Shown here in pieces: positions 20,902 through 23,952 of a DNA stretch of 64,000 nt. Source of the stretch: an uncultured Chlamydiae bacterium. Lineage in GTDB: Bacteria; Chlamydiota; Chlamydiia; Chlamydiales; SM23-39. Location: positions 96,001 through 160,000 of the forward strand of contig CAVSSM010000007.1 of NCBI GenBank assembly GCA_963730605.1, written 5' to 3'. Both the position numbers and the translations under genes were made by a program. Position 1 is the first letter of the stretch, and each line of letters begins with the position of its first letter. The notes under the pieces are model-generated. The model had not been told where the DNA came from and did no database searches. It saw only the letters and a program-made list of their open reading frames with translations.

Positions 20902-21909
20902 ATGATGAGCTTCGTACATATCCCAGAAAAGCAGATCGATTCCCATTCCTACAATGCCCCTACGCCAAAAGAGGGCGATTTCTTGGAATTGCTCTTGGAA
21001 AAACTCCCTCTTCTAAAGACTGTCTCTATTGCAGAAATCCTCGGGCTGCTGCTTCTCATCGAAGAGTCGCTCAAAGACCGCTCGCTTGAAAATGGCCATG
21101 TCCCAGGGCTCCTCTCCGAGGAATTGATCACCGTTTTGAATGAGTTTGAAAGGGACCCTGGACATGCTTCCACCTTGCTCCAAGAGAACCAATTGCTAAG
21201 GCCCGAGGTGTTGCCCAAAGCTCTTTTTGTAGAGGCGCGCGGCGCTGACGGAAAAGGGCTCTCCTCTAAGATTGCCGAATGGCAGACGCAATGCAAAGAA
21301 GGGTCTCTTGCCTACCTCTTTGCTCAAAAACTTTTAGATGCAATCCGGTCTCAAGAAAATGGCCTCCAAGATCACCCGACGGCTCGCTCTGCTGAACCCG
21401 TTGCCCAAGCGTTGCTTGCTGCAGTTAAGGACGGCGGCGAGGCGAGGCATTCGCTTTTAGTTCAAGTTTACGAGAAGGCGATCGCTTATTCGAACAGTCC
21501 TTCGGCCTCAGTCGAAACGAAGCAGTTTCTCCAAACCATCCTCCTCCCGCAAATAGAAAAATGGATCGCCCAAGATTCCCATTTGGAAAAAAGAGCAGGT
21601 GAAAACCAAACCCCAACTCCTCATGCGCCCCTTCTTGAAAGTCCTCTGTCAGGAGAGGAAAAGCTAAAACAGGAGAACCCAATCCAATCTCTCTTTGAAC
21701 CTCTCCTCACCTCGGATGGCCAAAAAGAGAACGTCCTCAAAGAGATCCCAAATGCCGGTGCATTTCCGGTGCTCGCGCCTTATCCAACTAACTTTGCCCC
21801 ATCGCATCGGGTCATGAGGCGGCGTCGGCGCTATCCAAGGAGGCGCGAGGAATATCCTGAGGATGAGGAGCCGGATCAAGATCAACCTCCCTCGGATTCA
21901 TCAAAGTAA
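20902..21909 (+). CDS. Hypothetical protein
   Basis: 335-aa ORF; TTGACA at 20853 upstream; Arg-rich then acidic C-terminus. Confidence 0.7.
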   Translation: MMSFVHIPEKQIDSHSYNAPTPKEGDFLELLLEKLPLLKTVSIAEILGLLLLIEESLKDRSLENGHVPGLLSEELITVLNEFERDPGHASTLLQENQLLRPEVLPKALFVEARGADGKGLSSKIAEWQTQCKEGSLAYLFAQKLLDAIRSQENGLQDHPTARSAEPVAQALLAAVKDGGEARHSLLVQVYEKAIAYSNSPSASVETKQFLQTILLPQIEKWIAQDSHLEKRAGENQTPTPHAPLLESPLSGEEKLKQENPIQSLFEPLLTSDGQKENVLKEIPNAGAFPVLAPYPTNFAPSHRVMRRRRRYPRRREEYPEDEEPDQDQPPSDSSK

Positions 21910-22720
21910 GCCACCCTCTTGACGCCATGAGTTGGAACGATTCGAGGAGTCCTTCGAACTCTTCAAGAAAAGGGATCAGGGCGGCGAGTTTGGCTCCTTT
22001 TTTAAAACGGGAGAGAAGATCAAAAAACTCAGATGAAATCTCCTCGTAGAGACTCTCTTCCCCGCTGCGGTAGAGGACGAAGTATTTTTTCCGCCCGCAC
22101 CTTTCGAGCGGGGGAAGATCGCTCGCTTGCCAGTAGGTCGGTGGATGCTTCATGAGCTCTTTTCGAAAGGCAAAGAAGTCTGCATCTAACGTAAAGAGCA
22201 AAACAAACGGCTGAAGAAACAGTTTTTTCTTTTCTACTTCCGCGAGCGTTTCAGGTTTGAGGGGCGGCCGTATGTTCGTAAAGAGGAGCTTCTCATAGGA
22301 TAGGTCGAGAAGGGCAAGTCCGAGGACAAGCGGCGCATCGCGGTGGCGGTAATATTTCTTGAGCCATTTGGGAAGGTCGTTTCCGATATTGGAAAGGAAC
22401 CAGTCATGGGGCGGATATTTCAAAAGGTATGGCTCGGCGATGAGGCGGTTGAAATCCTCGTAGTCGAAGAGGCGGAGAACCGCAGGGTAAATCTCCTGGC
22501 AGATGTTGATGAGGCGCCACCAATATTGCTGTTGGTAGATGCCGAGGCGCTCTTCGCTCAACATTGTTGGCCCGGGAGCGATCCGCTTGCGGATGGAGGC
22601 GATCAGGGCGGGCGGGAACAAGGGAATATTGTCCGAGTCCGATGCAACGATAGGGGAAGTGATGTGCTTGGCGAACCAAGTTTGCATCTCGGAGAGCGTT
22701 GCGGGCGCCGTCTCAAACAT
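21812..22720 (-). CDS. DUF2063/HvfC/BufC-type MNIO partner (putative RiPP recognition protein)
   Basis: LSEMQTWF, EERLGIYQQQYWWRL, YP.V.RL, YL.KYPP; overlaps the 3' end of the DUF692 gene. Confidence 0.85.
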   Translation of the reverse strand: MFETAPATLSEMQTWFAKHITSPIVASDSDNIPLFPPALIASIRKRIAPGPTMLSEERLGIYQQQYWWRLINICQEIYPAVLRLFDYEDFNRLIAEPYLLKYPPHDWFLSNIGNDLPKWLKKYYRHRDAPLVLGLALLDLSYEKLLFTNIRPPLKPETLAEVEKKKLFLQPFVLLFTLDADFFAFRKELMKHPPTYWQASDLPPLERCGRKKYFVLYRSGEESLYEEISSEFFDLLSRFKKGAKLAALIPFLEEFEGLLESFQLMASRGWLTLMNPREVDLDPAPHPQDIPRASLDSADAAS

Positions 22721-23552
22721 GGGCAAACTGCTCTTGATAGGCTTTGGCCTTCAAAGCCTCTTTCCAAGTCTCCTCGAATGGAACGAACCGGTCGTCCCAT
22801 TCGAGAAGCGTCGAGACGCCCTTTTGAGACGACCGGGTTTTCGGGTAGACGTCGCGGTAAATTTCCCACACTTCGTCCCTGACCGGATAGTCGTGGGTAT
22901 CCAAGACGTAGCGCCCGTAGTCGCTGTGGCCCGCCAAATGGATCTGGACAACCCTGTCCAAAGGAAGGTTTGAAACATAGTCTTTGGGATCGAATCCGAG
23001 GTTTCGGCTCGAGACATAGATGTTATTGACGTCGAGCATCATGGAAATATCCGCTTTTTCCACGACCGCCGTATAGAAATCCCATTCGGGCATTTCATCG
23101 TTTGTGAAGCTTGCATTGGAAGAGAGATTTTCAAGGGCGAAAGGGATCTCCAGATAATCTTGAACGATTTTCGCCCGCGCGGCGACATATTCGACCACTT
23201 CCCTGGTGCGGGGCAGGGGCAGAAGATCATGGAAGCGGGCTCCCGGAAGGCGGCCCCAGCATAAATGATCGGAGAGCCAAGGGGTTCTCGTGAGCTGCGC
23301 AAGGCGTTTGAGTTTTTTTAAATAATCCCAATCAAGAGGAGTTGCGCTTCCAATCGCAAGGCTTACGCCATGCATGACCACCGGATACTTCTCTAAGATC
23401 CGCTGCAAATTCCTGAGAGGCATACCGCCCCCCATAAAATTTTCGCTGATGATCTCGAACCAATCGATCGAGGGCCAGCTCGCGAAAATTTCCCGCAAAT
23501 GAATCGGGCGAAGCCCGATCCCGATCCCCAGATTTGGGACTGATTTGATCAT
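22713..23552 (-). CDS. DUF692 multinuclear non-heme iron-dependent oxidative enzyme (MNIO; MbnB/HvfB/BufB family)
   Basis: GIGLR, FEIISENF, HGVSL, SDHLCW, DLLPLP, LEN, LDVNN, IHLAGH, DTHD, LLEWD. Confidence 0.95.
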   Translation of the reverse strand: MIKSVPNLGIGIGLRPIHLREIFASWPSIDWFEIISENFMGGGMPLRNLQRILEKYPVVMHGVSLAIGSATPLDWDYLKKLKRLAQLTRTPWLSDHLCWGRLPGARFHDLLPLPRTREVVEYVAARAKIVQDYLEIPFALENLSSNASFTNDEMPEWDFYTAVVEKADISMMLDVNNIYVSSRNLGFDPKDYVSNLPLDRVVQIHLAGHSDYGRYVLDTHDYPVRDEVWEIYRDVYPKTRSSQKGVSTLLEWDDRFVPFEETWKEALKAKAYQEQFAHV

Positions 23553-23573
23553 GAATCCCTCTTAGAGACTCTT

Positions 23574-23605
23574 AACACCGTGTCTCCAAACAAAGACACG
23601 GTGTT
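23574..23605 (-). terminator. Perfect 12-bp stem-loop between the precursor and MNIO genes
   Basis: AACACCGTGTCT-CCAAACAA-AGACACGGTGTT; no long U-tract, so it may be a stabiliser or leaky terminator. Confidence 0.6.
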
Positions 23606-23616
23606 GGGTAGTATCT

Positions 23617-23952
23617 TTATGGAGACAAAATCTTCGCTGCGGCTTCCCGTTTTTCTTTCATGCCAGTAGAGGGTGTTTGGGATGAGTTGGATGACATCTT
23701 GCCCCCTGTGCAATCGGATTTTCCGGTGCAGCCATTTTTTCCCTTGCAGCCGCTGGAACCGGTGCAGTCAGATTTTCCTGTGCAGCCGTTGGTTCCTTTG
23801 CAAGTTGTCTTGCCTTGACAGCCGGTTTTGCCCGAACAAGAGGAGTTGTCGTTTTGCTGGCTATCCCCCATTGATGACCCGCAGGCGCAACCGCCAACAG
23901 TACTGCCGATGGCAAGACCCATCAAGGCTAATTTGAGAACGTTCTTCTTCAT
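23617..23952 (-). CDS. Cys-rich repeat peptide with signal sequence; putative MNIO RiPP precursor
   Basis: RBS AGGGAGA; MKK plus hydrophobic stretch and VGGCAC; eight CxGxxx repeats (Cys39-Cys81); directly upstream of DUF692. Confidence 0.88.
   Translation of the reverse strand: MKKNVLKLALMGLAIGSTVGGCACGSSMGDSQQNDNSSCSGKTGCQGKTTCKGTNGCTGKSDCTGSSGCKGKNGCTGKSDCTGGKMSSNSSQTPSTGMKEKREAAAKILSP

Follow-up and report, generated by a model that had tools for sequence, protein, structure and literature searches.

The Buf2 system of Caulobacter vibrioides (bufA2B2C2, BUF_6/12Cys), which makes the 'Cys-Lys' captophorins, is one of the closest known relatives of the locus presented here, and about 16% of Buf2 precursors carry lipoprotein signals (PMC11626156, PMC12452194). 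Bufferins protect against copper and amoebal predation (PMC11626156), and all characterised pairs of an MNIO maturase with a PME1 partner install 5-thiooxazole (10.1101/2025.11.18.689057). The EGKCG-repeat captophorins comprise fontiphorin, oxazolin (HvfA), gonophorin and bulbicupramide (MmrA) (10.1101/2025.11.18.689057, PMC12538549). Lipidated MNIO products have been demonstrated as the DAG-RiPPs lipo-NedABC, with an EGKCG-type NedA, and lipo-DybAH, with a chryseobasin-type DybA; the accessible text of that study reports no experimentally made lipidated Buf2-type peptide (PMC13056109). Helical Buf2-like precursors from the chlamydiae Parachlamydia and Neochlamydia are listed as unclassified in Dataset S2 of PMC13097082.

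The window, i.e. the whole 64,000-nucleotide stretch of chlamydial DNA analysed here, carries on its minus strand a cluster whose open reading frames bear out the layout given in a preliminary description, all in one orientation and in the order precursor, hairpin, MNIO, DUF2063 partner:

Positions 23617 to 23952, minus strand: bufA-like precursor gene, 111 aa with 10 Cys, HH alignment to BufA2 95.8%
Positions 23574 to 23605, minus strand: intergenic hairpin with a 14-bp stem, the coding strand lacking a U-tract
Positions 22713 to 23552, minus strand: MNIO (DUF692) maturase of the BufB / Cys-Lys type, 279 aa, PF05114 321 bits (cut-off 25)
Positions 21812 to 22726, minus strand: DUF2063 / PME1 partner, BufC-like, 304 aa from a TTG start (ATG at 22720), overlapping the MNIO stop

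The cluster belongs, as first proposed, to the MNIO RiPP clusters of the bufferin/captophorin type, here in the genome of an environmental chlamydia, with an MNIO whose key residues are intact, an adjacent DUF2063 partner and, upstream, a Cys-rich precursor with an export signal. We read it as a bufABC-type operon, in which thiooxazole-forming enzymes would act on an exported, lipidated peptide that binds excess copper in the chlamydial envelope, and give this reading a probability of roughly 0.7. The operon is flanked upstream by a frameshifted prfC and downstream by a convergent 335-aa ORF without known family, so the reported absence of an adjacent DoxX or sigma gene holds; it is, however, normal for Buf2 clusters, which share the precursor–MNIO–DUF2063 order. 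DoxX is nearby in 7 of 12 loci of the hexad-precursor family. A radical SAM gene close by (25842–26714) was excluded from the cluster, being linked in only 1 of 26 related loci.

All three proteins fall under the curated NCBIfam cut-offs: the precursor scores 9.8 bits with the BufA2 model NF050166 (cut-off 60), and thus, in line with the preliminary description, does not score as a standard BufA2; the MNIO scores best with BufB, NF050167 (296, cut-off 310; HvfB 220, cut-off 360); and the partner scores 19 bits with HvfC (cut-off 142). In the MNIO, alignment to 3BWW and motif inspection show H61, H96, E141, D174, N177, H205, D218, H220 and E251 to be intact, together with catalytic D253 and specificity D254; N177, D218 and H220 appear to correspond, through 3BWW, to HvfB N175, D242 and H244, and the other residues of the set are those we take to be iron-site ligands. 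Its LEWDD at 250–254 is the Cys-Lys (Buf2) signature, whereas the EGKCG-type controls 3BWW and L059 carry LERDF, i.e. Asp-Phe in place of Asp-Asp. In the MNIO tree the hexad family forms a 100/100 clade of 10 rows nested in a 100/99 clade whose 26 rows are mostly chlamydial. The methanobactin-type MbnB model TIGR04159 gives 37 bits (cut-off 325), the partner is a DUF2063 protein and the precursor has a signal peptide, none of which fits a methanobactin; the ring expected from characterised MNIO–PME1 pairs is 5-thiooxazole rather than the oxazolone-thioamide of methanobactin. The partner itself matches PF09836 with 55 bits (cut-off 27.2), and DUF2063 was matched by all 13 aligned partner proteins (the window's and 12 homologues). 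NGO1945_C, checked as a C-terminal RRE-like domain, was matched by six of these 13, the window's own copy not among them, and a PDB sequence search with the partner returned no match to 3DEE. A complex prediction of MNIO, partner and precursor gave 0.70 against 0.63 for the control, which is no answer either way.

The distinctive part of the locus is the precursor core:

Positions 23695 to 23838, minus strand: core of eight CxGxxx hexads (residues 39–86), two lead-in hexads followed by two copies of CKGxNG-CTGKSD-CTGxxx

The eight hexads are exactly as first described, with Cys at 39, 45, 51, 57, 63, 69, 75 and 81 and an exact six-residue spacing (among 200,000 shuffled precursors, just 33 reached at least five Cys at spacing 6), but the protein holds ten Cys in total rather than eight, Cys22 and Cys24 lying at the end of the signal peptide. 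The underlying repeat unit spans 18 residues and occurs twice (residues 51–68 and 69–86; 38 of 54 nt identical). Compared with six orthologues, the 33 core codons show mostly synonymous change (synonymous/nonsynonymous 5/2, 12/4, 18/3, 21/4, 17/4 and 10/5), and the number of core Cys ranges from 5 to 9 across 14 homologues.

The precursor profile aligned Cys for Cys with BufA2-like precursors (HH 95.8%, E 6.6e-9) and with chlamydial Buf2-like precursors (HH 98.0%, E 2.5e-13), against HH 0.35% for one EGKCG precursor, in comparisons that involve low-complexity Cys/Gly sequence and a single sequence as negative control. Eight homologues scored 10–23 bits with the BufA2 model or did not match it (controls L027, L034 and L030: 92, 82 and 67), and the Buf2 spacing 6-6-7/8-6-6 was present in 112 of 164 short proteins retrieved by precursor searches. 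No DUF2282 or BufA1 match, which would have indicated the four-Cys Buf1 type, was found at E up to 1. With a homologous CxGxNx-CxGxxx-Cx repeat and a Cys-Lys-type MNIO (D253–D254), the precursor is, judged from sequence, a Buf2-derived offshoot and not an unrelated repeat type.

Within this relationship, several features differ from Buf2. BufA2 has six or twelve conserved Cys in a 6-6-7-6 layout with a distant closing Cys, whereas here eight (5–9 in the family) follow a 6-6-6-6-6-6-6 register, neither the closing Cys nor the beta/helix segment for a CysI–CysVI disulfide is present, a chlamydial C-terminal basic tail is added and the score lies far below the BufA2 cut-off. CTGK[SA]D and CTG stand where Buf2 has CKG and CxT, and this precursor has CTG at the two positions where CKG is most strictly kept among Buf2-like precursors (103/108 and 104/108), so that the motif preferred by the enzyme is altered at these positions. 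The helical chlamydial precursors, whose MNIOs form a sister clade, share the MKKxxLxKLAL(M/L)G start, the C-terminal KR tail and the core (aligned at 98%), but have 6-6-7-6 spacing within a helical domain and mostly lack a lipobox Cys, whereas the hexad type lacks the helical insert. Protochlamydia amoebophila, a cultured symbiont of amoebae, also has a cluster of the helical type. Like the EGKCG captophorins, the hexad precursor combines an MNIO and PME1 with short Cys/Gly repeats in variable number, each a possible ring, although it contains no EGKCG, profile homology is absent and the unit is a Cys-x-Gly 6-mer here and a Lys-Cys-Gly 5-mer there; the multivalent copper binding of that group may be extended to this precursor by likeness. 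The hexad motif is absent from the 24,106-row precursor table, and the six-residue-repeat precursor is a rare variant missed by current family models.

Lys directly follows Cys at only two of the eight core sites, which bears on how much of the core is modified. A mixed product, with thiooxazoles confined to the Cys-Lys sites (Cys51, Cys69, perhaps Cys45), disulfides at the CTG Cys and the 18-residue repeats folded as a small solenoid that bears one or two metal sites, would suit an MNIO that retains the Asp proposed as partner of the substrate Lys, and one structural disulfide is kept in both Buf1 and Buf2. Beetle antifreeze proteins are disulfide-laddered, with Cys every six residues and CT motifs, a pattern that the hexads resemble. 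A PDB sequence search with the precursor, however, gave low-complexity matches and no antifreeze protein, the AlphaFold model has no ordered core (mean pLDDT 46.6, pTM 0.20), and Buf2 is modified at each of its four central Cys, even the third, after which Lys is often missing in the BufA2 homologues examined here; we consider a mixed product quite unlikely. Matches of the precursor to collagen and adhesins were rejected as Gly-periodicity artefacts far under the cut-off.

Two further features concern export and, perhaps, recognition:

Positions 23887 to 23952, minus strand: predicted lipoprotein signal peptide and Cys22 (residues 1–21: MKK, hydrophobic stretch, VGG), from hydropathy
Positions 23626 to 23667, minus strand: C-terminal basic, helix-like tail, MKEKREAAAKIL, common to other chlamydial MNIO precursors

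The export signal, judged from sequence, hydropathy and conservation, agrees with the exported precursor of the preliminary description, which overlooked the lipobox-like Cys22 (VGG|C22) and so took a probable lipoprotein for a simple exported peptide. All 14 aligned homologues have a Cys where the signal-like stretch ends, and the genome contains lgt, lspA and lnt, which makes a lipoprotein the likely product. As in the DAG-RiPPs (PMC13056109), a lipobox Cys stands on a putative MNIO substrate, for which triacylation and membrane anchoring are predicted. Residues 96–109 of the tail are predicted to be helical in the low-confidence AlphaFold model, and the tail is possibly a recognition follower.

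An MNIO gene lies directly downstream of the hexad precursor in 13 of 13 distinct loci, which upholds the expected conservation of the precursor upstream of orthologous DUF692 genes, and at locus L061 the precursor and MNIO matches decay in parallel. Both observations argue against the idea that the precursor lies outside captophorin-type chemistry, being an unmodified Cys-rich envelope lipoprotein or carrying a different modification made by a diverged enzyme clade, as do its homology to Buf2 and the intact metal and catalytic residues of the MNIO. Cys-rich proteins are a feature of chlamydial envelopes, and the enzyme clade does sit on a long stem, with a loop after ENFM one residue shorter and clade-specific Arg at 106, 115, 214 and 255; even so, we regard this explanation as very improbable. 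Spread beyond Chlamydiota was not accepted: the precursor of L006, titled Verrucomicrobiae, is identical to that of G388, a genome placed in the window's order. L101 was dismissed as an unrelated Cys-rich match without an MNIO. Some non-chlamydial proteins (P0049, P0051, P0054, P0103 and P0152) are likewise all-hexad. In a published table, five of eight Parachlamydiales rows consist of MNIO and DUF2063 without a recognised precursor, indicating that annotation models miss chlamydial precursors.

On the preferred captophorin-type reading, the precursor would be the substrate of the MNIO, which together with the DUF2063 partner would convert several core Cys to 5-thiooxazole rings, each modified Cys losing 4 Da and absorbing near 305 nm, as in characterised relatives. 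By the same comparison, modification would take place in the cytoplasm, ahead of Sec/Lgt/LspA/Lnt processing, and the peptide would then be exported and, as predicted, lipidated at Cys22. Up to eight ring thiols could coordinate several Cu ions, probably as a loose network like the one suggested for fontiphorin, and the excess copper would be sequestered in the envelope; copper binding and defence against host copper are suggested by analogy.

Regulation of the operon may involve the intergenic hairpin and one upstream element:

Positions 24014 to 24019, minus strand: candidate -35 box TTGACA, some 62 nt upstream of the precursor start, overlapping the prfC stop codon

The stem-loop reported earlier is real (z -4.5, with 0 of 200 shuffles equally stable). 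Six of 11 loci have stable hairpins, which share little sequence; the window's hairpin is terminator-like only when read on the opposite strand and exists in one copy in the genome, which rules it out as a genome-wide repeat. It likely stabilises or attenuates the transcript, giving precursor in excess over the enzymes. TTGACA lies at a similar distance upstream of the precursor in 6 of 11 loci examined; in the window it has no good -10 box at the usual spacing, and a consensus promoter scan called no promoter there. No operator palindrome common to 11 upstream regions was found, and an upstream ATTTCC-T-GGAAAT palindrome, absent from the other 10 loci, was rejected as an operator.

No linked copper gene or copper regulator was found at the locus, and no CopA-type pump or multicopper oxidase in this genome (83% complete). 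A distance of 1.3 kb separates the operon from a cyoABCDE cluster, and a second such cluster is on contig C1. The missing pump and multicopper oxidase and the nearby cyo genes would suit the same chemistry put to another job, in which a lipid-anchored polythiooxazole stores or delivers copper, e.g. to the heme-copper bo3 oxidase, or acts as a buffer for another soft metal or against oxidative stress, instead of detoxifying host copper; MerC fusions and repeat precursors resembling copper storage proteins have been noted (PMC12452194). Yet only 2 of 26 related loci, those of the closest relatives, have cyoE close to the MNIO, for which reason a conserved link to the oxidase was rejected, and copper excess induces the characterised members, which give protection from it, so that we think such a role unlikely. 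MNIO genes occur in 139 of 401 Chlamydiota genomes. In a survey of 400 genomes that scored at most three candidates per genome, 101 had both MNIO and CopA, 38 MNIO only, 103 CopA only and 158 neither, and the idea that the MNIO cluster has replaced CopA throughout the phylum was rejected; the window's family gave 3/15 against 26/54 (p 0.08) among kin that are not independent. Chlamydial MNIOs mostly stand alongside CopA (101/139), which says little on the metal.

Repeat precursors, lipidated bufferins, clusters without DoxX or sigma genes and chlamydial MNIO pairs have all been described before, and the multivalent repeat RiPP first put forward has characterised precedents in fontiphorin, bulbicupramide and lipidated NedA. 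With system type, chemistry and lipid anchoring published, the captophorin-type operon adds no new pathway type. It does offer a natural test of MNIO substrate choice, pairing a Cys-Lys-signature enzyme with a substrate in which six of eight sites lack Lys, and the pattern of modified Cys would tell whether the MNIO signature decides the modified site. It also exposes a gap, chlamydial precursors being overlooked by annotation models in spite of the many MNIO genes in the phylum. A bolder interpretation, which we find conceivable though rather doubtful, is that a chlamydial lineage has turned the folded Buf2 peptide into an unfolded comb on a lipid anchor. A re-tuned Cys-Lys MNIO would convert each sixth residue, also at the CTG sites, to a thiooxazole, and the comb would serve as the main envelope shield against host copper in an obligate intracellular symbiont. 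If true, Cys-Thr-Gly hexads would represent a third captophorin substrate code, and about one-third of Chlamydiota genomes would encode an unstudied copper defence.

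The putative bufferin-type cluster lies on the minus strand, where the precursor, stem-loop, DUF692 and DUF2063 elements were found in one orientation, as the preliminary description had them, and both domains were matched:

23617-23952, minus strand: precursor ORF, 111 aa
64-nt spacer between the precursor and MNIO ORFs, minus strand: forms a hairpin with a stem of 14 bp (z -4.5)
22713-23552, minus strand: MNIO ORF, 279 aa (PF05114, 321 bits)
21812-22726, minus strand: DUF2063 partner ORF, 304 aa, overlapping the MNIO ORF (DUF2063, 55 bits)

The window's genome holds one MNIO, one partner and one hexad (CxGxxx) precursor. 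Near the cluster, cyoB and prfC (window 16421-18406 and 24016-25604) are each broken across several frames, which points to indel errors in the assembly; despite these, all three cluster genes align with orthologues along their length. The closest named relatives of the MNIO come from chlamydial or unlabelled MAGs (78-94% identity), the precursor of the Chlamydiales locus L003 is also carried by a genome of the window's genus, and the phylum suggests an intracellular life for the organism.

The eight hexads stand exactly as first written, with core cysteines at residues 39, 45, 51, 57, 63, 69, 75 and 81; the remaining two of the ten cysteines are at 22 and 24. At least five cysteines at a spacing of six arose in 33 of 200,000 shuffles of the precursor, an 18-residue unit occurs twice (residues 51-68 and 69-86; 38 of 54 nt identical), and synonymous changes predominate among core codon differences from six orthologues. 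A single-sequence search returned 7 homologues out of 8 candidates, and a 14-row profile run against 1.84 billion representatives gave 250 proteins at E <=0.001, 10 at 1e-10 and 4 at 1e-30. The precursor is conserved upstream of orthologous DUF692 genes, the MNIO following directly in all 13 hexad-precursor loci, each counted once (window, L001, L003-L007, L020, L021, L065 and L098-L100); L061 is a decayed second copy, whose MNIO match covers only 82 residues. Of 400 genomes sampled from the phylum, no more than five had a strong match (E <1e-24), and the type is therefore rare. Core cysteines number 5 to 9 per precursor, with Gly at +2 in 97 of 106 and Thr (54), Lys (35), Ser (12) or another residue (5) at +1.

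Directly upstream of its hexad precursor, the closest relative, L001, has a second short precursor-like gene (L001:4284-4574, frame; the short ORF begins at an internal Met) that shares the hexad precursor's leader and has a single core cysteine, and the window precursor's leader looks like a blend of the two. A tandem repeat in genome G000 (G000:C4:23394-23672), with CLSxSx hexads in one frame and weak precursor matches from the other strand, probably encodes a repeat protein of Gly, Thr and Ala that has no relation to the RiPP.

By model score the window's precursor is not a BufA2 member (9.8 bits, cut-off 60); eight hexad homologues gave 10-23 bits or no match, and controls from other MNIO loci 92, 82 and 67. 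The suggestion that the repeat differs from the HvfA EGKCG type and recalls BufA2 held up in profile comparison, at 0.35% against one EGKCG precursor and 95.8% against eight BufA2-type precursors, which came via the MNIO search and of which three were scored on the BufA2 model, all above cut-off. Comparison with 14 chlamydial Buf2-like precursors gave 98.0%, a value that is not independent because some were found with the same profile. These comparisons indicate that hexad and Buf2 precursors are homologous. Among 164 proteins no longer than 260 aa (172 in total from precursor searches), 112 have the Buf2 6-6-7/8-6-6 spacing and six the CTG[KR]xDC type. In 108 Buf2-like precursors with strict 6-6-7-6-6 spacing, KG follows the second cysteine in 103 and the fifth in 104, whereas the hexad type has CTG at both; its long linker is one residue shorter, Lys has moved from two sites and the distant closing cysteine is absent. 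On a homologous core, these differences make the hexad family a modified Buf2. Exact hexad runs are not unique to it: 10 other proteins of the 164 have at least five, without the CTG motif.

The common chlamydial precursor type (L009:4538-4963, L016:4555-4989, L073, L078-L080, L084-L088) places a five- or six-Cys Buf2-like core inside a conserved helical domain (ELNxEGKxLYxSLDxEGKxLA ... DKNLAVK) and scores 21-41 bits on BufA2 where scored; often one or two more Cys/Gly-rich genes lie upstream, and some copies have no MNIO gene nearby. P0146 (530 aa) is a 12-Cys Buf2-like precursor running into MNIO-like sequence, and may be a fusion or frameshift artefact.

PMC12452194 describes hundreds of Cys precursors without a class, and five of its eight Parachlamydiales rows list MNIO and DUF2063 but no called precursor. 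The dataset of 10.1101/2025.11.18.689057 (journal version PMC13097082) includes 16 chlamydial MNIO-PME1 rows and helical chlamydial precursors without a class. CTGKSDC, CTGKADC and GCTGK had 0 matches in the 24,106-row precursor sheet of PMC13097082, and a full-text literature search for CTGKSDC returned no paper, although supplementary PDFs could still mention the family.

A feature missed in the preliminary description is a cysteine that immediately follows an N-terminal segment, first basic and then hydrophobic, in 14 of 14 aligned precursors. It stands at residue 20-24 in 13 of them and at 17 in the other, an entry with a shorter N-terminus, and the residues in front of it are small (VGG, ITS, ISS, ISG and similar). 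Together with Lgt, LspA and Lnt, which all score above cut-off in the window's genome, this makes the precursor peptide a likely lipoprotein. Predicted lipoproteins make up 16% of Buf2 (PMC12452194), and MNIO RiPPs with lipidation have been reported (PMC13056109). Short lipobox precursors (L067:1495-1680, L070:1468-1683, L074:1501-1734, P0008-P0014), with two to five core cysteines (CSGKTSC-like) and the same leader, stand before related MNIOs wherever context was seen; they are a reduced sister type.

The MNIO scores best on BufB (296 bits, cut-off 310), then HvfB (220; 360) and MbnB (37; 325). Lys-Cys (EGKCG) enzymes are reported to carry Phe next to the catalytic Asp on its C-terminal side, where Cys-Lys (BufB2) enzymes carry a second Asp (10.1101/2025.11.18.689057); the window's MNIO has D253-D254, the Cys-Lys pattern, whereas Asp-Phe stands in the structure 3BWW and at the EGKCG locus L059. 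The iron site of HvfB has been described (10.64898/2026.07.17.739211), and the window's His/Asp/Glu/Asn motifs are all intact; that the peptide goes unmodified, or undergoes other chemistry, is very improbable. Buf1 and Buf2 carry thiooxazoles (PMC11626156) and EGKCG repeats six rings (PMC12538549). Modification of only some cysteines, with disulfides holding the fold, is an unlikely alternative to 5-thiooxazole formation along the core.

In a tree of 48 MNIO rows (window plus 61 loci, after removal of two short matches and of 12 Flavobacterium rows that were near-duplicates), the window's family forms a 100/100 clade of 10 rows, nested in a 100/99 clade whose 26 rows are mostly chlamydial. 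Nine of the ten have a hexad precursor and L002 lacks upstream DNA. In this clade the loop that follows ENFM is shorter, and residues 106, 115, 214 and 255 are Arg; connecting these features with the CTG sites would be speculative. Aligned partners match DUF2063 in 13 of 13 and NGO1945_C in 6. Bacteroidota-type loci (L025, L026, L029, L035-L053, L057) have precursors of 180-210 aa that contain 12-16 Cys and lack an evident signal peptide (L035 only 19.5 bits on BufA2), and MNIOs with neither Asp nor Phe signature (WDG/WDS).

DoxX is absent beside the window's cluster, as first noted, but 7 of the 12 family loci have it within the examined flank, and contig C1 of the window's genome carries a homologue. 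Published Buf2 clusters are reported without DoxX (PMC11626156) or sigma genes (PMC12452194). Among 11 loci, six have a stable precursor-MNIO hairpin, with little shared sequence, six have TTGACA before the precursor, and no common operator palindrome was found. Long nested inverted repeats between precursor and MNIO (L007:4795-5000, 206 nt, z -13; L021:4671-5000, 330 nt, z -17) are possibly small mobile elements replacing the hairpin. On the plus strand, a 335-aa ORF (window 20902-21909; no family match, C-terminus Arg-rich then acidic) shares 98 nt with the end of the partner gene, its 73% orthologue seen only in L001. A radical SAM/SPASM protein without a specific family match (25842-26714, plus), divergent from prfC, is MNIO-linked only in L001, and an ankyrin-repeat and SET-domain protein (28982-30367, plus) could be a host-directed effector.

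MNIO genes, known from the PVC group (PMC11626156), occur in 139 of 401 phylum genomes (G000-G400), 101 of which also have CopA. Their spread across families is very uneven (45 of 46 genomes in one, none of 30 in a second and none of 35 in a third), and G304 has five matches. No CopA-type pump or multicopper oxidase was found in the window's 83%-complete genome. Genomic context neither proves nor rules out copper as the metal; bufferins protect against copper and amoebae (PMC11626156), and another metal role for the peptide is rather unlikely.

The hexad precursors are a real, conserved and rare subfamily inside a well-described RiPP class. The gene content, residues and ancestry of the cluster are established, and from its relatives we infer ring chemistry, lipidation and metal binding, with a probability of roughly 70%: the MNIO-partner pair would oxidise core cysteines to 5-thiooxazoles in the cytoplasm, and the peptide would then be exported and lipidated at Cys22, its thiol-bearing rings sequestering copper in the envelope.
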